From contig JAUSFL010000006.1 in the NCBI GenBank assembly GCA_030649735.1, forward strand, positions 1-18,093: a stretch of 18,093 nucleotides of DNA, written 5' to 3'. Both the position numbers and the translations under genes were made by a program. The notes beneath the pieces were generated by a model, which did not search any database, was not told the origin of the DNA, and saw only the letters and a program-made list of their open reading frames with translations. This document shows, in pieces, positions 1,372 through 18,093 of the stretch. Origin of the DNA: Candidatus Iainarchaeum sp. (lineage in GTDB: Archaea > Iainarchaeota > Iainarchaeia > Iainarchaeales > UBA10191). The stretch's first letter is position 1, and every line of letters begins with the position of its first letter.

Positions 1372-3915
1372 TCAGCGCTCTTTCGCTTCAAACTTCAATC
1401 CAGCCTCTTCAGCAAGAATGCTGGCTTTTGGGGTTTGCTCCCACGTAAATTCTGGAAGCTCGCGGCCAAAATGGCCGTTTGCTGCAGTCAATTTGAAAAT
1501 TGGCCTCTTAAGGTCTAATTCCTTGATGATGTTTGCAGGCTTGAAGCTAAAGTGCTTTCTCACAAGCTCTTCAATTCTTTCTTCAGGCACTTTATTGGTG
1601 TCAAAGCAATGCACCAGAATGCTCACTGGCTCTGCAACTCCAATCGCATAAGCGACTTGCACTTCGCACTTTTCAGCAAGGCCGGCCCGCACAATGTTTT
1701 TTGCCACAAAACGGCAGTAATAGGCTGCAGAACGGTCTACTTTAGTGGGGTCTTTTCCTGAATTATGGCAAACAAAGCCATTTGCAGTGAAAGTATGGCT
1801 GCCTGGCACAAGTAAGTCATACACGTGTGCGAAAGAACTTTCAATCTTTTTAACCTTAGGGTAGAAATGATTCATTTTGTATAATAACTCAAGTTTTTTG
1901 AATTCTTTTTCAAAACCAAGCTTGCCTTTATAGGTTTCCAGAAAGTTTTCGAGTTTGTTGTAAGTTAATTCTTTCGTTGCTTTTCCAGTCCTAGCCCTAG
2001 TAAGTCTTCCAATATTAGCTTGGTCTTTTTGATGCTCGTTTGTTGAAAGTTTTTCCCAAAGCAATCTTATTCTTTCCTGCTGATTAGGGATCCTCAGAAA
2101 GTTTTCTTTCTCTTCAAAGTTTATTTCATTAAGAATTTTTTGTTTCCTCGGCAAATTAAACCCTATTTCTTCTTTAAAAACTCTGGCACTTTCAGAACCT
2201 TTAACGCGGAGAGCATAAACAATCCTTCGAGAGGTTGCTTCTCTTCCATTAATTTTGAACTTTTTTCCAGCATTATCAGTTGTTTGAATTCTTGAAACAA
2301 CCCCAAAACTCAATAATAATTGCTGAACTTGCTGTATTAAAGTATAAGAAGTTGAAACTAGTTTTATGTCCGGAAAACTCTTGTTTCTTCCATGAATTCT
2401 TACACCCCCATCAGTGTCAAATAAGCCCCTAAGAAAAGCTGCGATAACGCTCTTTTGTGCCTTAAATAGTTTTTCTGGAACTGCCTTTTCCCAAGATCGT
2501 TTATAATCCAAGCCAATGTGCTTCAAATAAGCTCTCAGCTCAACACCACCAACATAGGCCCAATGGCCAAAAATCTTCCATTTACTGCCAAAAAGCCTTT
2601 CATATAACTCACTTATGTTGCTTTTTTGTTCCGATTCGCAAACACAAACAGCTATTGCGCCATCCATCATGCAATTTCCGTCTCCAACAAGCAATCCAAG
2701 CAAGTATGCATAATCATCAGTTAATTCTTTTGGCAGATCAAACTTGTTTTTTCTGGCTTCGGCAGTTCCTTCCTTATAATTATAATTAAAATCGCTCAAA
2801 TCTACCTTTTCTCCAAATAATCTGTTTTTTTTATGGATTGCGATGTAATCGCCTTCTTTTAATTCATCCAATCTTTGCCAAACATAATCGCCTTTTTTGT
2901 CAATGATTCTAACACGCTGGTTTTTTGAGCCTTCTAAACAATAACCATCATCAGTTGTGACAGCAAAAGTTTCCATTTCACCATTATCATACCATTCTTT
3001 TGCTGGGGTTGGATGGATATCAGTCTTAACAAGTAAATGATTCTCGACAGTTTCCTGCATATTTCTAATCGGCTCTAAACCTTTTTGCGTGTTAATTAAA
3101 GAATTACCTTCAACACAAAAAGCCCCTCCCCCATGATAGCCTGCGCCGCCGTAAGAGTCAACAATGATTTTCCTTCCAGTCACTCCAGAATCTCCAGGCG
3201 GGCCGCCAATCACAAAGTCGCCAGTAGGGTTTACGAAAATTTTTGTTTTGGAATCAATTAAATTTCCGCAAACTGGCTTGATTACTTTTTCAAGAATGTC
3301 GTCAAAAACTTGCTGGTGCTTTACATTAGGCGCGTGATGAGCGCTAATTACAACTGCCTCAAGCCTTGCAGGCTTTCCATCCTTGTATTCAACAGAAACC
3401 TGGCTTTTTCCATCAGGCCTAAGGTACGGAATTGCCTTGCTCTTGCGGACTTCAGAAAGCTTTGCAGTTAATTTGTGCGCCAAGGAAATAGGCATTGGCA
3501 TTAATTCTGGAGTTTCATTGCATGCAAAGCCAAACATCATTCCCTGGTCGCCAGCGCCCTGCTCTTGGAACAAGCCTTGGCCTTCAGTGACCCCTATTGA
3601 AATGCTCGGGCTTTGCTCGTGCACTGAAATCAAAACTCCAACAGAGTCAGCATCATAGCCTACCTCTGGAGAATTATAGCCTATTTCGCGAATTGTCTCT
3701 CGCGCAATCTTTTGATAGTCAAGGACTGCCTTAGTGGTTATTTCGCCGGCAATCACACACAAGCCAGTAGTCACCAAGGTTTCAACAGCAACCCTTGAGT
3801 TAGGGTCTTGCCTTAACGCGGCGTCCAGGACAGCGTCTGAAATGTGGTCGCAAATTTTGTCGGGGTGCCCTTCAGTAACCGACTCCGAAGAAAAAATATA
3901 ATTTTGCTTTTTCAT
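1372..3915 (-). CDS. metK: S-adenosylmethionine synthetase (bacterial/eukaryotic-type MAT), intein-containing; spliced product about 395 aa
   Basis: Motifs [60 protein letters not shown]...[11 protein letters not shown] and GHFGR. N-extein 266 aa plus C-extein 129 aa. Confidence 0.97.
1762..3117 (-). mobile_element. Intein (452 aa) with LAGLIDADG homing endonuclease inserted in metK
   Basis: Starts at Cys (GGGAF|CVEGNSLI) and ends [21 protein letters not shown] followed by +1 Ser (SGKD). LAGLIDADG-like blocks [11 protein letters not shown] (about 2676-2710) and [13 protein letters not shown] (about 2404-2443). Visibly more AT-rich than the exteins. Confidence 0.96.
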
Positions 3916-5267: not shown

Positions 5268-8200
5268 ATGAAAGCAAAAATACTCGCGGTAATCATTGGA
5301 ATTTTCATGCTGGCTTTTGCAGCGTACGCGCAGGCAGAAGCACCAAGCCATTTGGAACTTGAAGTCTTGAATCCGCAATCAGGCGCCTTGATAAGCCAAG
5401 CAAACGGAAATTACCGGATTTTGTTCAAAGTTTACGACACTAACATTGCCGCGGACATTAACGCAAGCATTTACTACTTTGATTCAAGCACAAAAGCAAT
5501 AGTAGAAAACCTGCAATTGAAGACACAAGGCAATTGCACAAGCATTGACTGGACAGCAAAGCCAACTTGCTATTTTGACTGGAACACTGCGGGAATAAAC
5601 ACTGCAGCGCAATATTTACACACTATAGCGCAAGACTTGAATGCAGGCTGGTCTACAACATTCATTTTTGGAATGACAATAGACAACACTCCGCCTTCAG
5701 GAGTTTCAATCCAAATAAACAACACGCAAGCATTGACAAACGAAACAGGGCTTTCTCTAGGCTTAAGCGCTAGCGCTGACGCAAACCAAATGCAATTCTC
5801 CTGCGACAATTCAAGCTTTACTGCGTGGGAAAACTTTGCAGCAAGCAAGGCTTTAGACTTGGCAACTGGAAATGGAGCATGCAATGCAACAGACGGCAAC
5901 AAAACAGTTTACTTCAGGGTTAAAGACACCGCAGGAAACAATTCGGCAGTGGCTTCGGATTCAATAATTCTTGACACCGTGGGGCCAACAATTGAAATAA
6001 CACAGCCGCAGGGCAATGGATTCGACAATAATTCAAGAAGGCAAATCATTGCAAGCATTTCAGACAGCCTTTCAGGCCTGAAAATCAGCTCATTAAAATT
6101 CAGGATTGACGAAAAAAGCAGGGCTTTGGGAATCTTTGCGGATTATTCATTGGCATTCGCAAGCGACACCAATGTTTTGACTTACACTCCAAAAACAATA
6201 GACTACAACAACGGGCCGCACTACATTCAAATAGACCTGAATGACATTGCAGGAAACCAGGCAACTGAAACAGCAAGCTTCAATATTGACTTGAATGCGC
6301 TTGACGCAATAACAGACTTGAATGGCGGAATCCAAGGAAACATGCAAATAACAATAGCTTGGACTGCCCCATCACTAGCCGGGGCAGACTTGAACTTTTA
6401 CAAAATTTACAAAAGCCGAAGCCCAGTGGTTGAAATATTCAAGCTGGCAAGCTATTATGCAAAAACAAACAGCACAATATTTGATGACAGCAACATTGCA
6501 AAAGGAAGCACTTACTATTACTATGTGACAAGCGTTGACGCCGCGGGAAACGAAAGCAAATTATCCAATGAAAAAACCGTCCAAGTGCAGGGCTTTGTGC
6601 AAATAAGCTTTGACAAGAACGCAATAACACTGGAGGAAGGAACTTCATACAGCATTGAAGTGACAGTATTCAACGACACCCAAGAGTCAAAAAACATTGC
6701 TTTAACCGCCTCAAGCGATGACGGCAGATTGAACGCAGAGCTTGGCTCGACATACTTCAGGCTCAACCGCGGGGAAAGGACCACATTTTCCCTTTCACTA
6801 ATTGCTGAAAGCAACGTAAGGTCAGGCGACCACGAAATCACAATTGAATTAAACTATGACAATTTGACAGTTACAAAAACAATTGACGTCACTGTAGGAA
6901 ACAGCGATTTTGTCAGCTTTGACATTCCAGACCCTGAAATCTGCAATGAAGATTACACAATCATAATTCCAGTCGACATTACAAACCTTTCAAGCAACAC
7001 CAAGACAATCAGCCTGACTGCATCAAACAGCACTTTCATGCCTTACTGGGATGACAGTCCAATACAATTGGATCCTGATGAAACAGCAACAACAGACTTG
7101 ATATTGAACAACCAGCCGGCAAACGGGCTTGAAGGCCAGTACACAATCCAAGTGACTGCAAGAAGCGGCAGCAATATTTCAGTCCAAGACTTGGAAGTGA
7201 ATATTTCAAACTGCAATTCTTCAGGCTCAAGCGATTTTTCACTGACTGTTGACAATTCTTCAATAGAAATCCGCAAGAACGAAAAACGGAGAATCGAGTA
7301 CAGGATTACAAACAATTCAGACTTTGACCAGTACTTTCACGTCAGCGTTGAAACAGACTTGCACACAGACTACAATTCATTGATTTTCGTGCATTCTGGA
7401 GACACAGAACGTGACTTTTCTTTAGTTAGCGCGGGGCCATTCCAGGAAGCCGACAAAAGATACGATTACAAAATTATAGTGTCAAATGACGACTTCACTA
7501 AAGAAAAAACAATCAGCGTCAGGGTTCTTCCAACACACTACTTCGAGTTTTCAGCAAGCGTGCAAAGCCTTGATTTAAGGCAGGGAGAAAGCATTACAAT
7601 CCCGATTGAATTCGACAACGCGGACTACACTGAAGACTTCACTCTAGGCATTGAAAAAAGCGATTCTGCAATCACAACAGGCTTTAGCGAACCAACATTC
7701 AGAATGCTTGCAAGGGAATCAAAAACCGTGAATTTGACAATCACCGCGCCAAGCAATGCGGCATTAGGAAGCAGGACTTTCAAAATCACTGCAAGAACTG
7801 GAAGCGTTCCAACAAAAAAACTGGACTTGGGCCTTAACATAACAGCGGCAATCCCAATTCCTGAAACAACCCTCCTGGACATTGAAAGCTATCCAACACA
7901 AGTGCAATTAATGCCAGGCCAGTTCAAAGAAATAACTTTCATAATCTACAATCCATCAAGCAATCCGGCAAGCACCACAATAGAGCTTTCAGGGCTTCCG
8001 GACGGAGTCTCGCTCGAAGAAGACATTATTGAAACAATCCAGGCAAAGTCCAGAAAGACAATAACCGCAGTCTTGAAGGCAGACAAGACAGCAAGCACTG
8101 GAGACTTTGAAGTTGCGGCAAGAATTCAGGCGTTTGGAATGACTCAGACAAAAAGATTCAACCTGACTGTCGGAAACCAGCAGCAAGGATTCCTGTCAGG

Positions 8201-8339
8201 AATAATTTCAGGATTTTTGACCTTGGGCGAAAGCGTCTGGCTTGGAGTATTGGCATTAATAGCGATAATTGTTGTCTTAGTAATGCTTGGAAAGCTCGCA
8301 GGCAATGGAAAGCCCAAAGAAACATGGGTTCAAAAATAA
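5268..8339 (+). CDS. Large membrane-anchored surface protein with Ig-like, FN3 and repeated NEW3/COG1470-like beta-sandwich domains
   Basis: Signal peptide (...AAYAQA), 'IDNTPP' and 'LDTVGP' Ig-domain junctions, FN3 ('ITIAWTAP...YKIYK...YYYYVTSVDAAGNES'), about five roughly 105-aa repeats ('IEVTVFN', 'IPVDITN', 'IEYRITN', 'IPIEFDN', 'ITFIIYN'), many N-x-S/T sequons, C-terminal TM. Starts 1 nt after the upstream stop. Confidence 0.85.
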   Translation: MKAKILAVIIGIFMLAFAAYAQAEAPSHLELEVLNPQSGALISQANGNYRILFKVYDTNIAADINASIYYFDSSTKAIVENLQLKTQGNCTSIDWTAKPTCYFDWNTAGINTAAQYLHTIAQDLNAGWSTTFIFGMTIDNTPPSGVSIQINNTQALTNETGLSLGLSASADANQMQFSCDNSSFTAWENFAASKALDLATGNGACNATDGNKTVYFRVKDTAGNNSAVASDSIILDTVGPTIEITQPQGNGFDNNSRRQIIASISDSLSGLKISSLKFRIDEKSRALGIFADYSLAFASDTNVLTYTPKTIDYNNGPHYIQIDLNDIAGNQATETASFNIDLNALDAITDLNGGIQGNMQITIAWTAPSLAGADLNFYKIYKSRSPVVEIFKLASYYAKTNSTIFDDSNIAKGSTYYYYVTSVDAAGNESKLSNEKTVQVQGFVQISFDKNAITLEEGTSYSIEVTVFNDTQESKNIALTASSDDGRLNAELGSTYFRLNRGERTTFSLSLIAESNVRSGDHEITIELNYDNLTVTKTIDVTVGNSDFVSFDIPDPEICNEDYTIIIPVDITNLSSNTKTISLTASNSTFMPYWDDSPIQLDPDETATTDLILNNQPANGLEGQYTIQVTARSGSNISVQDLEVNISNCNSSGSSDFSLTVDNSSIEIRKNEKRRIEYRITNNSDFDQYFHVSVETDLHTDYNSLIFVHSGDTERDFSLVSAGPFQEADKRYDYKIIVSNDDFTKEKTISVRVLPTHYFEFSASVQSLDLRQGESITIPIEFDNADYTEDFTLGIEKSDSAITTGFSEPTFRMLARESKTVNLTITAPSNAALGSRTFKITARTGSVPTKKLDLGLNITAAIPIPETTLLDIESYPTQVQLMPGQFKEITFIIYNPSSNPASTTIELSGLPDGVSLEEDIIETIQAKSRKTITAVLKADKTASTGDFEVAARIQAFGMTQTKRFNLTVGNQQQGFLSGIISGFLTLGESVWLGVLALIAIIVVLVMLGKLAGNGKPKETWVQK

Positions 8340-11914: not shown

Positions 11915-13606
11915 TTATTTCTTTTTCTTTGAGGCAGTACTCGCGCTTCTTGATCTGATGAACATTCTTCCAATGAACAAGACAATGGCAAGCATTCCTA
12001 AAGCAAGCAGAATGACACTAAAGCGCAATGTTGAAATCGCGGATTCTACAGCAAATGCTGTCGGAGCAGAAAAGATTGACGCTCCAGACAAGACAATTGT
12101 TGAAGAGCCCATGTCTGCCTTTACTTCAGCGGCTGTCAAGGCGCGCCTGTAAACGCGCAAATTGTCAATGCTTCCCTTAAAAGCCAAAGAGTCATTGTTC
12201 ACTGCATTTCCAATCCGATACTTTGTGGCGCCTGCAGAAGCATTGTTGAAAAAGAACACTGTTGAGGCAGAGCCCACCCTATAAGTTGGCGTGACTAAAA
12301 CTCCATCAATGTAAAACTTGTTTCCTGAAACGCTAACCACATATGCCAAATGATGCCAATTGGTTTGCCTTTTAGGCAAAGCAATGTAAGCGTCAAATGT
12401 GGGAGTGCATCCGCTGGCTGCACCGCGGACTTCAAAAGCGCCATTGTTTATTGCAAGTTCAAAAGGATTAGTGCAGTTTCCAGAATCTGCAGCAAACCAG
12501 TCATTAAATCCCAAAGTTGTTGAAGACACTTTCACCCACGCAGTTATTGTTCCGGCAGTCAAATTGTCAAAAGAATCATTTGCGTTCAATTGCACGTAAT
12601 TATTTATTCCATTAAAAGAAAGGGCCTTTGAGTATTTTCCATTCACCCAACGGGCTCCAGAGATTGTTCCAGCAAAGCCGTTTCCTGAAGAGTCAGTGAG
12701 ATTAATGCCTTGGTTTTCATTAAAATTATAGGCTGCAACAATGCTGCTTACAGTCGGCATTGTAATGCTTTTTATTGGAGACAATGCAGATTCATTGCCT
12801 GCCGCGTCAAAAGCGCTGACTGCATAATTGTAAGCGCTGCCTGCAGTCAATCCGGCATCAGAATATGACGTGGCAATTGAAGAGCTAACCATTATGCTGT
12901 TTCTATAAATATTATATCCCGCAACTCCCACATTGTCTGTTGATGCAGTCCAAGACAAATTGACTTGCGTTTGGGAAATTGCTATTGCAGCCAGTCCTGC
13001 AGGAACGCTTGGCGCTTGAGTGTCTGGGGGAAGAATGCAAGAAGCATCGCAAGTTCCAGGCAAGTCGCACTCGCTTCCTACCGAACAGTCAGAATTGCCA
13101 AAGCATGCTATTGCATAACCGCAAGTGCTTACTGAAGCATTAGTTATTGCAAAAGTTATTGGCTGGTTTGAACTGTCGGAAAGCGCAACATTTGAAAGAT
13201 TTATCTGTGAGAATCCGGCATTGTCTGCATGAAGCGTTAAAGTTGCCAAGACTCCATTCACTGAAACACCGCCGCTTGCCATCCTAACGCACGCAAACTT
13301 TGAAGCAAGCCCGGTGTTTATTTGCCAAATGCTTGAGTCAGTGCAGAAAACCTGGCCAGCTGTTCCCAAAGCATTCGAAAAGCCCGCGTTCTTGAAAGAA
13401 ATCACGCTTCCATCATACTGAACGTCAAACTGGAAACCGTAAAGATTACTAATGCCTTCAGCGGCAATGGAAACAGTAAAATCTGAATTTGGCGAAGCAA
13501 CAATGCTTGAAGGCTGGATGTAAATTCTTTGGGCTTGAGAAAAGCCGGCAAGAGCCAAAAGAACCAGCAAAACAAACCCAATCTTCAAATTTTTTCTCAT
13601 TTGCAT
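11915..13606 (-). CDS. Membrane-anchored cohesin-FN3-LamG protein (mini-scaffoldin-like), about 563 aa
   Basis: Start reassigned to ATG 13606 (or 13600), giving signal peptide MQMRKNLKIGFVLLVLLALAGFSQA. Cohesin-like domain at about 13127-13531 ('FTVSIAAEGISNLYGFQFDVQYDGSVI...GVSVNGVLATLTL...INLSNVALSD'); 6-Cys linker; FN3 ('DTQAPSVP...LSWTASTDNVGVAGY'); LamG ('AAYNFNE...DSSGNG...GKYSKALSFNG...WHHLAYV...FYIDG...FKGSIDNLRVYRRALT'); C-terminal TM and KKKK tail. Confidence 0.88.
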   Translation of the reverse strand: MQMRKNLKIGFVLLVLLALAGFSQAQRIYIQPSSIVASPNSDFTVSIAAEGISNLYGFQFDVQYDGSVISFKNAGFSNALGTAGQVFCTDSSIWQINTGLASKFACVRMASGGVSVNGVLATLTLHADNAGFSQINLSNVALSDSSNQPITFAITNASVSTCGYAIACFGNSDCSVGSECDLPGTCDASCILPPDTQAPSVPAGLAAIAISQTQVNLSWTASTDNVGVAGYNIYRNSIMVSSSIATSYSDAGLTAGSAYNYAVSAFDAAGNESALSPIKSITMPTVSSIVAAYNFNENQGINLTDSSGNGFAGTISGARWVNGKYSKALSFNGINNYVQLNANDSFDNLTAGTITAWVKVSSTTLGFNDWFAADSGNCTNPFELAINNGAFEVRGAASGCTPTFDAYIALPKRQTNWHHLAYVVSVSGNKFYIDGVLVTPTYRVGSASTVFFFNNASAGATKYRIGNAVNNDSLAFKGSIDNLRVYRRALTAAEVKADMGSSTIVLSGASIFSAPTAFAVESAISTLRFSVILLALGMLAIVLFIGRMFIRSRSASTASKKKK

Positions 13607-13625
13607 TACACTTAATCCTTTTCTC

Positions 13626-13638
13626 TTTTTAAACTTTC
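13626..13638 (-). promoter_or_regulatory. Putative BRE/TATA (GAAAGTTTAAAAA) for the cohesin gene
   Basis: Lies in the 55-nt gap after the dockerin-gene stop, 20-26 nt upstream of the ATGs at 13606/13600. Confidence 0.45.
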
Positions 13639-13661
13639 CCAGAATTTCTGACAAATAATCA

Positions 13662-16600
13662 TTAGCAGGCCTGTCCAAAATTAGCAGCAACTTCCTGCAA
13701 GTCGCTGATGTTCACTCCGTCATTGTCTTTAACATCCGCAGGGTCTCCAGTAGCATTTCCAATCCTTAAGGCAACAAAAACCAGGTCAAAAACATCGACT
13801 TTAGAATCATTGGTCAAATCAAAGCAAGTCCTTGGCGGAGCAACGCCAGTGTATTCGAAAGCGCCAATGTCCCAGGCAGTTCCTTGAGGCCTTGAAACTC
13901 TGTCATAATCTTCGCTAAAGCCCGCAATTGCTGTTCCATTGTTTATTGCGGGGCTTGCTGATTGCAAATGAAAATCAAGATTTGCCGAATCTGCAAACAA
14001 TGGGTTTTGGCCAGTAATGTCGCTTGCATCGCGCTTTGCTGGAGTGATTCCATAAAACAAGTTGGTTCCTTGAGTGAAAGTCCCGCCATTCTCTGCAGTG
14101 AACTGCCAGCTTGCGCTTGCCTCAAAGCCAGAGTAAATTATGTTGTTCCTGACATCGCCAGTAGTGTTTGCGCGGTACCAGACAAAATAAATCGTTGGCT
14201 TTTTCACAGTGCCAATCACATTGTTGTAGACCTTTACGTTTTGAGTGTCTTGAATGACAATTATGGAATTTACAATGTCAATGAAAACATTGTTCCTTAT
14301 TATCCAGTCAGAATGCAAAGAGCCAGTATAGGCATTTCCAATAACTGCCTCGTGGCTGTCCGTGCAAAAATTCTTTTCAAAAAGCATGTTTTGTGCGCCA
14401 GAGCCGAAAGTCTGAAAGCAATCAACATGGCATTTGGTAGTTACATCAATGATGTCACTGGCTGTGCCGTGCATGTAATTGCCCCTGAAAACCCCGTTTG
14501 TTCCAAAAAACCTTGTATAATCACAGTCTCCCAAATATGCGTTGTCTATTTGCTTCTCAATGTCGTTGTTTTCAACCAAATAATTCGAGCCGTCAACAAC
14601 AATTCCTATTTGCGTTTGGTACAAGTGGTTTTGCGAAACTCTTGTTCCATCGCCATCGCCAATGATTCCGTACTTTCCAATGTCATGAATGTAATTGTTG
14701 ACTATTTCAATATTGTTGCCTGCAAAGTCAATTCCATCTCCATTGCCGCCATTGTTTGTGATATCAAAGCCGTCAATAATCAAATTGGAGCCATTAATGT
14801 TAAAGCCAGTCACAAAAGCCTGCTGTTTTGTTTCAGACTTGATTGTGATTTTACTTAAGGAAGTGCCTGATTTTGAAATATTCACAATCCCAGCTCCAGT
14901 GTAATTTCCAGGATAGGCCAAAACAGTGTCTCCAGCAACTGAGGCAGTGAGAGCGGCAGAAATTGTTGAGTATTCTTGCCCGCTTCCAACGCACCGGATG
15001 CTTGTTAAAGCGCAATTGCCGCTTGGTTGTGCTGGAGTTGTTGCAGAAGCCTGCGCTGATTGCGCGCTTTCATTATTTGCTGCATCAAAGGCTGAAACTT
15101 TGTAATTGTAAGTCGTGCTCGGACTCAAGCCAGCATTCTGGAAAGACGTTGTTGCAGAAGAGCCAATGTTCACTCCGCCGCGATAAACATTATAGCCAGT
15201 AACTGCAACATTGTCAGAGCTAGCAATCCAAGAAAGATTAATTTGAGAGCTAGAAGCAGCAGCCGCAGAAAGGCCAGAAGGCACAGACGGAGCAGTAGTA
15301 TCAGGGGCAGTAATAGTGTACACTTGCTGTTTCACAGTTTCAGAATTACTGGCAGCATCAACAGAATAATACCTCAAAATATTGCTTGAAGAAATTGAAA
15401 TCGCGGAAGAATAAGTCATTGACGGGGCACAGCCAGAACCAAGGCAATAATAAGTAATGCCAGACTCGTTCCGGGAAAGCGTAATGCTTTGCGTGCCAGC
15501 GTAAGTTCCCCCTAATGGAGAAGCTGTCGTTACTGGAGGAATAGTGTCTTCAGGAGGAGAAGCGCCAGTAAACTCGTAAGCTCCCCTTGTCCAATTAGTT
15601 CGCGTGTTGCCTTCCATGTCCACATCGTATGGAGCGCCAAGATTTGTTCCAATCATAGTTAATCCGGAAATTGTGTTTCCCAACACATGCAAATTTCCAG
15701 GCACTGAAACAAAAATTGCGCTTGCTGATGGAGCAACTAAAGAATTATTTCCAGCACAATTCCCGCTTGGATCGCTTCCCCCATACTGGATGCATCTCCA
15801 ATAGCTTTGCGCGCCAGTCGGCCCGCCAGAATACCAGTAGGTGCCCCACACATTATTGTAGTTTTCAGTTCCTGCAATGCTGGCGCCGTAACTATTATTT
15901 ATCCACAAATTATTCTTGACATCATAACCAGTCGATCCGTTTATGGAAGCAACTCCAGGATTTGCATTAAATCCATAAATTGTGTTATTATAAAACTTCA
16001 AGCCGTTAATCGTGCCAGTACTGGTGTTATCAATGACTGGGAACGCTGTCGAACCGCATTCAGTGGCGCAAGGCCCTTCAACAAGCTTGAATACATTGCC
16101 GTAAACTTCATGGTTAGTGCCAGTTCCATACAATTGCACAAACTGCCCGGTTCCGCGAATGTCTTCAAAAATATTCCAGCGAAGTATGACTGAACTGGTG
16201 CGGGAAGCCCATCCTTCAGCATGCATTGGAGCAGTAGAACGGTTCCTTGCCAAATAACTATACTGCAAAGTGGCAGTGCCGCCCATTAGAAACCCGGCGC
16301 CTTTAATGTCGTGAATGTACAAGTGGTCAAGCAAGCCGTTAAAAGCACAGCCGCCAACGCACAGCATTCCATGAGGGCCAGCAAGAGTTATTGGCAAATT
16401 AGTCGCGTTTACTCCGTCAATTTCATAATGGGAAATTGTAATGCCTGATACATCATTATCAAAAGTAAAACCTACAGCGCCAGAGCCAGTTGCATCACTG
16501 CGGGAGCGAAAGCCATAGCCAGTAGTTGTCCCATTGTTTGCAGAGCCAGCACCGCAAGAGCCATCAATAGTCCAATAATTTGTCGAAATGTCCCATCCTG

Positions 16601-18093
16601 AAGGAAACTGGGCCTGTGTTCCGCCTTCAGCAGAGCAAACTGAAAAAGCATTAGACCATCCAGTTGCTATGTTGTGATCTGCTATTGTGGCTCCCTTGAT
16701 TGTTATAACGCTAATGCCGCTTTGGGCAGTGTCAAGGGCAACAGCCGTATAATTTCCAACAGCCACGTAATAAGTTGCGCCCCTAGTAAAACGTCCGCCA
16801 GTTCCCGCGGCTTTTGCGGCAGCAAGTGAAGGAAAAGCAGTAGTCCAATCATTGCCGCAACTGCTAGTGCAGGAAGAGCCGGCGCGGATGTAAAAAACAT
16901 TGGAAGGAACGGCTTGAAACTCGTAAGCCCCAATGTCCGGAGTTCCAGAAATTGCATTTCCACGAATATCTGTAGAATAACCCAAGCTTGCCCCATTGTT
17001 TATTGCAGGACTTCCTGATTGAATGTTAAAGCCGTCATCTGCAGTGAAGGGAATTCCGTCAGCGCCTAAAGGGCTTGATGGATTAATGAATTTTGGGTCG
17101 CCTTGGAAATTGCCAATTCCAGAAACATATCCAGGAGTAGTAATAGTGGAATCATAAAGATTGTTCGCGCCAGTAAGATCTGGATAAATCCTTGGCTCGC
17201 CAGTAGACCAGCTTTGGCCTGAAATGATGTTGTTTCTTCCATCCCAATTGCCTAAAAGCCTTGCCGGCCCCTTGAAAACATTATTGTGGAATTTTACCGC
17301 ACCAATTGAAGTGTAATTATGCGGCTTGAAAACATCCCCGTTCGAAACAAAAACATTGTATGCAAAATTAAAGTTTCCTAAAGGCCCTAAATGGGCGTCC
17401 AGCATGAAAATGTCCCCAGTGTCCCAAAAAATGTTCCTGTAAACGTTAAGGCTGTAATTGTTGTTCTCAACCTGAAATACATCCCTGTGCTTTCCATCAG
17501 CAGGGCCTACATTATGGATGAAAATTGAATCCTGCATTGTAACTGTTCCGCCGCCGGCATACTTTATCATGTCTTCAGCGCTGTTCTTTTCAAAAGTGCT
17601 GTTAGAAATTGTGGCATTGGGAACGCGGATGTAAAGCGAAGTTCCCCAAGCGCCAGAAAAATCCCCTTTCACAAAAACATTCTTCAATTCAAAAAAATCG
17701 CCATTACAGCCAGCGCATAAAGCAGCATCCTGCAAGTCAATTGTATAACCACCGGCCGCGGGAACAATAATCTTGTCCCTGTCTCTTCCATCAACAGTAA
17801 TGTATGGGTGCTTTATTGCCATGCTGTCGATATAAACAATGCCATTTCTTCCAGATTCTTGCGATCTTGCAATAGTGATTCTCTGGCTTGCGGTTCCAGC
17901 CTTTCCAGTGGTTAAAGCAGCATAACTCAGGCTTGAAGAGCCGCCGTCAATGAAAATCGTGTCGCCCGGATTTATAGTAGTTTTTCCAGTAAAATTAAGG
18001 CTTGTCCAAGCATTAGCCCAAGAATTTCCAGTAGTGTTGTTTCCAGTCGGTGAAACATACCAGCTGGTGGAAAACGCAAAACTGGCAAAAAAC
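13662..18093 (-). CDS. Large secreted protein (>=1476 aa, 5' end outside the window): three right-handed beta-helix (pectin lyase-like) modules, a CHB_HEX_C-like domain, FN3 and a C-terminal dockerin-like domain
   Basis: The frame stays open 90 codons upstream of 17822: ...FFASFAFS|TSWYVSPTGNNTTGNSWANAW...INPGDTIFIDGG..., i.e. the end of a signal peptide and a beta-helix N-cap. Modules at about 16915-18060, 15567-16900 and 13850-15000 have Asn-ladder coils ('IVNNYIHD', 'IRNNVF', 'VYNNVI') and end in 'DIGAYEF', 'RGAYEF' and 'DIGAFEY'. 'DTIPPVTTASPLGGTY...LRYYSVDAASNSE' domain at about 15310-15550; FN3 at about 15040-15305. Confidence 0.9.
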   Translation of the reverse strand, partial: FFASFAFSTSWYVSPTGNNTTGNSWANAWTSLNFTGKTTINPGDTIFIDGGSSSLSYAALTTGKAGTASQRITIARSQESGRNGIVYIDSMAIKHPYITVDGRDRDKIIVPAAGGYTIDLQDAALCAGCNGDFFELKNVFVKGDFSGAWGTSLYIRVPNATISNSTFEKNSAEDMIKYAGGGTVTMQDSIFIHNVGPADGKHRDVFQVENNNYSLNVYRNIFWDTGDIFMLDAHLGPLGNFNFAYNVFVSNGDVFKPHNYTSIGAVKFHNNVFKGPARLLGNWDGRNNIISGQSWSTGEPRIYPDLTGANNLYDSTITTPGYVSGIGNFQGDPKFINPSSPLGADGIPFTADDGFNIQSGSPAINNGASLGYSTDIRGNAISGTPDIGAYEFQAVPSNVFYIRAGSSCTSSCGNDWTTAFPSLAAAKAAGTGGRFTRGATYYVAVGNYTAVALDTAQSGISVITIKGATIADHNIATGWSNAFSVCSAEGGTQAQFPSGWDISTNYWTIDGSCGAGSANNGTTTGYGFRSRSDATGSGAVGFTFDNDVSGITISHYEIDGVNATNLPITLAGPHGMLCVGGCAFNGLLDHLYIHDIKGAGFLMGGTATLQYSYLARNRSTAPMHAEGWASRTSSVILRWNIFEDIRGTGQFVQLYGTGTNHEVYGNVFKLVEGPCATECGSTAFPVIDNTSTGTINGLKFYNNTIYGFNANPGVASINGSTGYDVKNNLWINNSYGASIAGTENYNNVWGTYWYSGGPTGAQSYWRCIQYGGSDPSGNCAGNNSLVAPSASAIFVSVPGNLHVLGNTISGLTMIGTNLGAPYDVDMEGNTRTNWTRGAYEFTGASPPEDTIPPVTTASPLGGTYAGTQSITLSRNESGITYYCLGSGCAPSMTYSSAISISSSNILRYYSVDAASNSETVKQQVYTITAPDTTAPSVPSGLSAAAASSSQINLSWIASSDNVAVTGYNVYRGGVNIGSSATTSFQNAGLSPSTTYNYKVSAFDAANNESAQSAQASATTPAQPSGNCALTSIRCVGSGQEYSTISAALTASVAGDTVLAYPGNYTGAGIVNISKSGTSLSKITIKSETKQQAFVTGFNINGSNLIIDGFDITNNGGNGDGIDFAGNNIEIVNNYIHDIGKYGIIGDGDGTRVSQNHLYQTQIGIVVDGSNYLVENNDIEKQIDNAYLGDCDYTRFFGTNGVFRGNYMHGTASDIIDVTTKCHVDCFQTFGSGAQNMLFEKNFCTDSHEAVIGNAYTGSLHSDWIIRNNVFIDIVNSIIVIQDTQNVKVYNNVIGTVKKPTIYFVWYRANTTGDVRNNIIYSGFEASASWQFTAENGGTFTQGTNLFYGITPAKRDASDITGQNPLFADSANLDFHLQSASPAINNGTAIAGFSEDYDRVSRPQGTAWDIGAFEYTGVAPPRTCFDLTNDSKVDVFDLVFVALRIGNATGDPADVKDNDGVNISDLQEVAANFGQAC
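13665..13830 (-). other. Dockerin-like domain (duplicated Ca-binding loop-helix)
   Basis: TCF-DLTNDSKVDVFDLVFVALRIG...A-DVKDNDGVNISDLQEVAANFG-QAC: two D-x-[NT/K]-x-D/N-x-x-V-[DN]-x-x-D-L repeats, each followed by an amphipathic helix, at the extreme C-terminus. Confidence 0.8.

Follow-up and report, generated by a model that had tools for sequence, protein, structure and literature searches.

Background

To our knowledge, the organisation of polysaccharide-degrading enzymes by cohesin and dockerin modules has been regarded as an invention of bacteria and fungi, and the cohesin and dockerin modules of the archaeon Archaeoglobus fulgidus are few, lie partly within one protein and are not known to carry glycoside hydrolases. 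The stretch of DNA analysed here (the window) is the whole of an 18,093-bp contig (C24) from the 1.28-Mb assembly (51 contigs, 92.7% complete, 2.27% estimated contamination) of Candidatus Iainarchaeum sp., a groundwater archaeon with an ultra-small genome. Two adjacent genes on its minus strand encode a large secreted protein that ends in a dockerin (the cargo) and a putative membrane protein that carries a single cohesin (the anchor), and the pair is probably part of a monovalent, membrane-anchored, cellulosome-like display of glycan-binding or glycan-cutting proteins in the Iainarchaeales. A first-pass annotation of the window had suspected a DPANN archaeon, which is supported by the NCBI lineage of Candidatus Iainarchaeum (Nanobdellati (DPANN); Iainarchaeota; Iainarchaeales).

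Bacterial cellulosomes, such as those built with CipA and OlpB of Clostridium thermocellum (1ohz, 2b59, 3kcp), share with the Iainarchaeum system the cohesin jelly-roll, the two-repeat dockerin, the terminal placement of dockerins on secreted carbohydrate-active enzymes (CAZymes), the short proline-rich linkers that precede them, and anchoring at the cell surface, which is predicted here. They differ from it in that no multi-cohesin scaffoldin was found in the window genome, where 4/4 anchors have one cohesin; in being attached by SLH domains or sortase rather than by a predicted transmembrane helix; in lacking the two conserved cysteines that bracket the dockerin here; and in their hosts, which are not archaea with genomes of 1.28 Mb. 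The cargo of the window, unlike theirs, belongs to no recognised catalytic family. Because the four cohesin modules sit singly in four open reading frames (ORFs), the system is called cellulosome-like and not a cellulosome.

Three other bacterial systems, the 'minimal cellulosome-like system' of Cellulosilyticum lentocellum (PMC13487519), the amylosome of Ruminococcus bromii (PMC4611034) and the mucinolysome (PMC12997984), are similar, according to the available text of these sources, in having few cohesins, a modest set of dockerin-bearing enzymes and substrates other than cellulose, but they are found in Firmicutes and apparently are not anchored by a membrane helix. The NagH and NagJ proteins of Clostridium perfringens (2ozn, 2jnk) provide an example of glycoside hydrolases paired outside any cellulosome; theirs is a bacterial pairing of enzyme to enzyme, with no membrane anchor.

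For archaea, the available text of a study of anaerobic methanotrophic (ANME) archaea (PMC9012536) states that binding between cohesins and dockerins has been verified, that its roles are unclear, that the reported cargo does not consist of CAZymes, and that earlier surveys had found no archaeal scaffoldins. ANME archaea themselves are described there as having an expanded extracellular repertoire of dockerins and cohesins, with a proposed role at the surface, as in Iainarchaeum; their cargo consists of ATP-binding cassette substrate-binding proteins and S-layer proteins, possibly with CAZymes, and their scaffoldin-like proteins have up to five cohesins, whereas the window genome combines beta-helix and CAZyme cargo with anchors that are all monovalent and predicted to be transmembrane. 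In the available text of a 2019 review (PMC6349945), degradation of proteins and of polyhydroxybutyrate is attributed to the Diapherotrites, and polysaccharide depolymerisation is listed for other DPANN phyla only. The literature searched, which lay outside subscription journals and supplements, contained nothing linking Diapherotrites or Iainarchaeota with dockerins, cohesins or cellulosomes, nor the phrase 'archaeal cellulosome'. The modules of the window are themselves ordinary cohesins and dockerins; an archaeal, transmembrane-anchored, monovalent cellulosome-like system is not described in that literature.

Results and discussion

Identification of the cohesin and the dockerin

The anchor gene (11915-13606, minus strand, with its ATG at 13606) encodes 563 amino acids (59 kDa). 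On the evidence of profile matches and a predicted structure, its N-terminal module (13094-13537), which includes a conserved cysteine pair (C66/C84 of alignment A2), is securely assigned as a cohesin. The Pfam Cohesin family (PF00963) matches anchor residues 65-186 (P0002 numbering) at 31.3 bits in the whole protein and 34.0 bits in a six-frame search, above the cut-off of 24.1, and the cohesin family profile matches at 189.4 bits. As the first-pass annotation had supposed, the module models as a cohesin jelly-roll: the AlphaFold2 model, made from a 27-row alignment, is all-beta with a predicted local distance difference test (pLDDT) score of 94.4. Comparison of folds was needed because a sequence search of the PDB gave only one weak cohesin match (3l8q, E 0.033). 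With Foldseek, the model had 162 PDB matches at E<=0.001, and all of the matches listed (to rank 50) were cohesins, the best being 6kge_A (E 7.1e-11), with template-modelling scores (TM) of 0.71-0.76. The non-cellulosomal cohesin of A. fulgidus (2xdh), likewise archaeal, has the same fold (TM 0.74/0.80).

Since a search with the full-length anchor was swamped by FN3 proteins and returned nothing on the cohesin, the cohesin was searched alone. At E<=0.001, this exhaustive search gave 1442 relatives, and proteins with four to eight cohesin stretches are common among them. The nearest two (P0123 and P0124, with 63-64% identity) follow the plan of the anchor: a signal peptide, a cohesin, a Cys linker, and, further on, a transmembrane segment. 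Another relative, the 223-residue P0211, has a cohesin followed by what by eye appears to be a two-repeat dockerin in one chain, an arrangement like that of A. fulgidus.

The dockerin comprises the last 57 residues of the cargo (13665-13835, minus strand), which follow a short proline-rich linker and form two loop-helix repeats bracketed by cysteines. Its only Pfam match is to Dockerin_1 (PF00404), at 10.7 bits (E 0.64), and it is not among the 20 matches to that family in the genome at E<=1. Because Pfam alone fails, the assignment was made from paralogues in the genome, from a profile compared with solved dockerins and from the AlphaFold2 model, and by these routes the dockerin named in the first-pass annotation was borne out. 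The genome has 23 paralogous modules, of which three pass Pfam outright and three more do so through neighbouring matches in frame (paralogue scores above the cut-off were 26.9, 24.2, 23.7 and 23.7 bits), and the window copy matches the family profile at 108.1 bits. The top PDB matches of a profile built from 19 in-genome modules are solved dockerins (E 1.7e-4 to 1.8e-3); the best is the dockerin of C. perfringens NagH (E 1.7e-4), and the match to the type II dockerin of C. thermocellum CipA (2b59_B, E 6e-4) covers both repeats. In the model (pLDDT 92.8), helices occupy residues 16-24 and 44-51, and Foldseek ranks 1-31 are all dockerins, with 2y3n_B the best (TM 0.82, root-mean-square deviation 1.6 Å, 55 columns); a domain this short gives weak Foldseek E values, from 0.058 upwards.

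Positions 1, 3, 5, 9 and 12 of the putative calcium-binding loops are D-T-D-D-D in loop 1 and D-K-N-N-D in loop 2, position 3 being non-canonical in both, as it is in loop 1 of the aligned CipA type II dockerin. Loop 1 is invariant at positions 5 and 12, and loop 2 at positions 1 and 12, in 19/19 aligned copies. A cysteine begins every aligned copy and ends nearly every one, which suggests that the two ends may be clasped by a disulfide. Among the families that the first-pass annotation had named, Cohesin, Laminin_G_3 and Beta_helix (in region 3 of the cargo) are present at scores above their Pfam cut-offs, whereas Dockerin_1 falls below its own in the window copy.

Cohesins, dockerins and their cargo across the genome

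The four cohesin-bearing ORFs of the genome (one in the window, one on contig C30, and two on contig C13, of which one is small and one large) all begin with a signal-like segment and end in transmembrane-like segments, as judged by a hydropathy scan. Dockerins occur in 24 ORFs among about 1280, and fall into two sequence classes. In class A (CFDLT...; 13 ORFs), the dockerin is C-terminal in 12 and N-terminal in one; the cargo comprises beta-helix, LamG and Ig/cadherin-like proteins (He_PIG/Big_9/Cadherin-like), a GH39 protein (68 bits) and a weak match to alpha/beta-hydrolases. In class B (CPDxKxDG...; 11 ORFs), the dockerin is N-terminal, just after the signal peptide, in five and C-terminal in six; the cargo includes GH10 (162 bits), GH18 (63 bits), GH88 (290 bits), a SASA esterase (72 bits), a heparinase II/III-like protein (N and C domains), GxGYxYP_C and some proteins of no assigned type. 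A contig edge truncates the 5' end of five dockerin ORFs (the window cargo, C17, C18_14881, C44_77086 and C2); in the dockerin ORFs whose N-terminus was assembled, the N-terminal signal-like segment is the sole transmembrane-like one. Near-identical dockerin modules (61-90% to that of the window) are found on eight contigs, two of which measure 149 and 160 kb. With four cohesin modules and 24 dockerin ORFs, the system is not the minimal one that the first-pass annotation had proposed.

The nature of the cargo bears on what such an assembly would be for. The same proteins might be used for attachment, the beta-helix, LamG and Ig/cadherin-like cargo being adhesins that hold on to glycans on a host cell or a neighbouring cell; consistent with this, most class-A cargo is non-catalytic by Pfam, and the organism is a DPANN archaeon with a 1.28-Mb genome. 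Beta-helix folds, however, characterise lyases and hydrolases of polysaccharides just as much as they do adhesins, one class-A protein belongs to GH39, and no host is known. The available text of studies of Omnitrophota (PMC10066038) and ANME archaea (PMC9012536) proposes adhesion roles for non-cellulosomal dockerin proteins, whereas that of the 2019 review (PMC6349945) allows that some Diapherotrites may live independently. As GH10, GH18, GH39, GH88, lyase and esterase proteins bear dockerins, those of class B accounting for all but the GH39, breakdown of glycans at the surface is favoured; attachment to a partner cell is the chief alternative and appears less likely.

Arrangement of cohesin and dockerin genes

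The cargo ORF (13665-18092, minus strand, with a TAA stop codon at 13662-13664) runs past the contig edge at its 5' end, leaving 1476 codons inside the window (gene at 13662-18093). The anchor gene lies downstream on the same strand, beyond a spacer of 55 nt (13607-13661), as originally described. The 3' end of another contig (C32) matches the right end of the window over 108 nt, and 25-mers of this overlap were found nowhere else in the assembly. C32 supplies the missing 5' end of the cargo gene, consisting of 13 codons with a GTG start and a signal peptide resembling those of paralogues, so that the joined protein has about 1489 residues (about 157 kDa). Directly upstream of the cargo gene on C32, on the same strand, are three more class-A dockerin genes (629, 680 and 940 amino acids). 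Because the overlap of C32 with the window is unique, the window pair is placed at the end of an array of five genes on one strand, in the order dockerin, dockerin, dockerin, big dockerin, cohesin anchor. The picture of a one-socket anchor dedicated to this one cargo does not hold for a pair that ends such an array in a genome with 12 other class-A dockerin ORFs, which do agree with the further suggestion that the anchor may accept dockerin cargo encoded elsewhere.

A gene ending in a dockerin is found directly upstream of the cohesin, on the same strand, at 3/3 cohesin loci of the genome. Besides the window, these are the C30 locus, where a class-A dockerin gene (C30:60902-63058) precedes the cohesin gene (C30:58521-60866), and the C13 locus, where a class-B dockerin gene on C10/C19 precedes the C13 cohesins across a 141-nt overlap. 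By our own rough estimate from 24 dockerin ORFs among about 1280, the chance of all three would be roughly (0.019)^3, or about 7e-6. Contigs C10 and C19, of 1699 bp each, carry 87%-identical GxGYxYP-type putative glycoside hydrolases with a class-B dockerin, and both overlap C13:1-141; they may be either strain variants or a duplicated gene, and the assembly broke at them.

Among 40 genomes of the same order, cohesins of the window family occur in four, and family dockerins occur in three of these four and in none of the 36 others; among 200 sampled genomes of the phylum, such cohesins occur in seven. Other cohesin loci in public genomes and metagenomes were found with a seven-row cohesin alignment, the metagenome scan adding three distant loci but not a contig for either of the close relatives P0123 and P0124. 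A dockerin is present in the flanks of 11 of these 19 loci. In six it is the C-terminus of the directly upstream gene on the same strand, which extends the gene order of the window to its relatives, a comparison that the first-pass annotation had proposed; in two it belongs to a divergent neighbour.

In a tree of cohesins, those of the window, C30, P0123 and P0124 form one clade (100/100), beside cohesins of GW2011_AR10 and other archaea, with the 'small anchor' cohesins in a clade of their own. Dockerins that adjoin AR10-type cohesins are class-A-like (CFDRT...), and those that adjoin a small-plus-large pair of cohesins in another genome (G008) are class-B-like (CPD.K.D). The classes of neighbouring dockerins would fit two specificities, as a correlation over few loci.

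A Patescibacteria locus (L063, 269-8260, plus strand) has three tandem genes that end in family dockerins, followed by a protein with two family cohesins, and raises the possibility that bacteria of the candidate phyla radiation and DPANN archaea share modules.

Evidence for pairing

From family membership, gene order and co-occurrence, we infer that cohesins and dockerins of this family probably bind each other. Structure prediction of the complex, for which cohesin residues 1-142 and the dockerin were supplied with custom alignments and two calcium ions, both of which differ from the calibration, gave a score of 0.44 (runs of 0.43, 0.44 and 0.50), against 0.07 for the best of three controls, and was graded as weak support. 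The mark that it passed is reached by 58/80 solved complexes and 2/110 mismatched pairs; those that reach the mark with a score of 0.60 or under comprise 7/80 solved complexes and both of the passing mismatches. Contact agreement between the runs was 100%, and the partners had pLDDT of at least 91. As cohesin-dockerin complexes have already been solved, the pass may reflect likeness to them and not binding by the window copy.

The two genes could be adjacent without their products pairing, if the cohesin binds another class of dockerin, the dockerin of another cell or nothing at all, and the C-terminus of the cargo is an end cap stabilised by calcium and disulfide. The weak support from the complex prediction, the sub-threshold Pfam score of the dockerin and the TATA-like box that each gene apparently has of its own, owing to which co-transcription is not implied, would all suit such an arrangement. 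It would not account for the order of dockerin and then cohesin at every locus of this genome and at six outside it, nor for the occurrence of family dockerins, among the 40 genomes of the order, solely in genomes that also have cohesins. It is further opposed by the match of classes: class-A-like (CFDxT...) dockerins adjoin cohesins of the window clade or its sister clade (window, C30, L058, L059), and class-B (CPDxKxD) dockerins adjoin the small-plus-large cohesin pair (C13, L050). Adjacency without pairing is accordingly thought improbable, and pairing of cohesin with dockerin is retained. It is still less credible that these contigs are mis-binned bacterial DNA, for example of Patescibacteria, because, despite the similar Patescibacteria locus with modules of the same sub-families and the estimated contamination of the assembly, the window encodes a tRNA intron endonuclease beside the anchor gene, the closest cohesins in the tree are from an archaeon or Candidatus Iainarchaeum, and near-identical dockerin modules link eight contigs, large ones among them.

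Proposed mechanism

In the display system proposed here, export, topology, binding, calcium dependence, the fit of dockerin class to cohesin and the substrate are all predictions. Cargo and anchor would both be exported. The anchor would be a type-I membrane protein, with its C-terminal helix in the membrane, its basic tail inside and its single cohesin outermost; FN3 and LamG would form a stalk, possibly with a sugar-binding role. The cohesin would bind class-A dockerins singly, with both dockerin loops holding calcium, and would thereby keep at the cell surface either the cargo with its three beta-helix regions or any one of 12 further proteins with a class-A dockerin. The window pair would be one channel of a genome-wide system of monovalent display, whose likely task is to bind and cut polysaccharides at the surface. 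More tentatively, and with the balance slightly against it, the genome may hold a two-channel 'archaeal cellulosome' with two orthogonal specificities, in which class-A dockerins go to the cohesin-FN3 anchors of the window and C30, and class-B dockerins to the anchors of C13.

Several observations weigh against the proposed display system. The dockerin of the window lies well under the Pfam cut-off (10.7 versus 22.9 bits), and because position 3 of its second loop is a lysine, at a position that varies across class A, that loop cannot be assumed to bind calcium. The complex prediction, besides being weak support, came without an interface. Neither Pfam, NCBIfam nor a sequence search of the PDB places the beta-helix cargo in a catalytic family. 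A dockerin was absent from the flanks of 8/19 fetched cohesin loci, and one genome of the order (G015, 74% complete) has cohesins and no family dockerin at E<=0.001. The system is patchy, as a genome of the same genus (G001, 81% complete) and two of the same family have neither module. Signal peptides and transmembrane segments were called by a simple hydropathy scan. Finally, the assembly is fragmented into its 51 contigs and has some estimated contamination, yet the window carries an archaeal tRNA-splicing endonuclease gene.

Other domains of the anchor and cargo proteins

The order of domains proposed for the anchor in the first-pass annotation (signal peptide, cohesin, Cys linker, FN3, LamG, transmembrane helix and basic tail, all on the minus strand) is supported by Pfam matches to Cohesin, fn3 and Laminin_G_3 in that sequence and by the hydropathy scan. 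The N-terminus resembles a signal peptide by sequence and hydropathy (MQMRKNLKIGFVLLVLLALAGFSQAQ, 13529-13606). After the cohesin, the Cys-rich linker (13037-13129) has seven cysteines in 31 residues and is common to the relatives P0123, P0124, P0149, P0160 and P0178. It is followed by FN3 (12788-13006; Pfam fn3, 30.3 bits) and a concanavalin-like Laminin_G_3 domain (12119-12610; 69.7 bits, cut-off 27.6). A transmembrane-like helix recognised by hydropathy and sequence (11957-12028) leads directly into the basic tail (RSRSASTASKKKK, 11918-11956). A PGF (archaeosortase-type) motif was not seen by eye at the C-terminus, and no model was run for it.

The cargo lacks any transmembrane-like segment in the hydropathy scan, in agreement with the description of it as secreted and devoid of a membrane anchor of its own. 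It contains three tandem beta-helix regions on the minus strand, each ending in a (D/R)(I)GA(Y/F)E(F/Y) motif. Region 1 (residues 1-400, 16893-18092) begins with the tail of a signal peptide (FFASFAFS|TSWYV) like the signal peptides of paralogues, scores 24.4 bits against Pfam Beta_helix over the first 420 residues (E 2.4e-5), slightly short of the 25.9 required, and ends in DIGAYEF (16917-16937). Region 2 (residues 401-855, 15528-16892), which ends in RGAYEF (15570-15587), has no Pfam family at E<=0.1 when the 440 residues after that segment are searched; it is probably a second right-handed beta-helix, a lead provided by an ESM Atlas feature search (0.95/0.94 to right-handed beta helix, Pel9A-like or NosD clusters). 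It is followed by an Ig-type module like CHB_HEX_C_1 (15330-15518; 25.2-27.1 bits, cut-off 22) and by FN3 (15051-15284; Pfam fn3, 34.8 bits). Region 3 (13851-15005) matches Beta_helix at 42.4 bits in the whole protein, where the match has four stretches, the best at residues 1142-1309, and at 32.5 bits as a segment. It ends in the choice-of-anchor Q motif WDIGAFEY (13851-13871), and NCBIfam choice_anch_Q matches the cargo at 78.2 bits (cut-off 25) in two stretches, the best at residues 1372-1414.

The 'triple beta-helix' of the first-pass annotation thus stands in the sense of three tandem right-handed regions, of which only region 3 passes Pfam; a trimeric triple beta-helix fold was considered and dropped, the evidence being for right-handed regions within a single chain. 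By sequence, the cargo matches the PDB in its FN3 alone (chitinase A1 FN3, E 6.7e-12), and the beta-helix cargo is thus without a solved close relative. The FN3 of the cargo (15030-15305, minus strand) and that of the anchor (12767-13027, minus strand) are 61% identical over 83 residues, which suggests that the neighbouring genes have exchanged modules.

Promoter-like elements

The first-pass annotation had suspected that the cohesin gene has a TATA box of its own, and the spacer does hold a TATA-like sequence (TTTAAAAA, 13626-13633) that starts 27 nt before the ATG. Of 20 dockerin and cohesin genes, 16 have a TATA-like hexamer between 21 and 45 nt ahead of the guessed start, most often at around 29 nt, compared with 5.5% of random positions in the genome (a control that does not represent the upstream regions of other genes). 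The element often takes the form AAA(G/A)TTAAATA. Its distance from the start implies short or absent 5' leaders, and these sequence elements would fit separate promoters whose transcripts have short leaders or none.

Neighbouring genes

On its other side, the anchor gene adjoins the tRNA intron endonuclease gene, an archaeal marker (97 bits), and the window also encodes a class I tRNA synthetase. A bacterial-type S-adenosylmethionine synthetase gene (1372-3915, minus strand), with 3/3 Pfam domains, is split by an intein that contains a homing endonuclease of the LAGLIDADG type. At 5268-8339 on the plus strand, the window encodes a large surface protein of 1023 residues, composed of Ig-like and FN3-like repeats (FixG_C, NPCBM_assoc, Big_13), in which the family profile found no dockerin. 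Upstream of the dockerin array on C32 (locus L079, 7-8806, plus strand) are four ORFs on the same strand, of 1036, 372, 217 and 1255 amino acids, which have weak Pfam matches only (Big_7, TSP3 repeat, CBM_56-like), and then glmS.

Conclusions

An ultra-small archaeal genome appears to devote 28 genes to a system with very simple wiring, one cohesin per membrane anchor. If the cohesins and dockerins do bind, their compact and possibly disulfide-clasped pairs, which may be orthogonal, could be of use in protein engineering, and one would have to ask whether DPANN archaea and Patescibacteria exchange modules. Should the two-channel arrangement also be true, this would be the first archaeal cohesin-dockerin system that organises polysaccharide-degrading enzymes, and would suggest that, in groundwater, the DPANN archaea trade this set of modules with Patescibacteria. 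Binding alone would provide a testable mechanism at the DPANN cell surface, by which such archaea may feed on external or host glycans or attach to them, and would add polysaccharide depolymerisation to the traits of the Diapherotrites.

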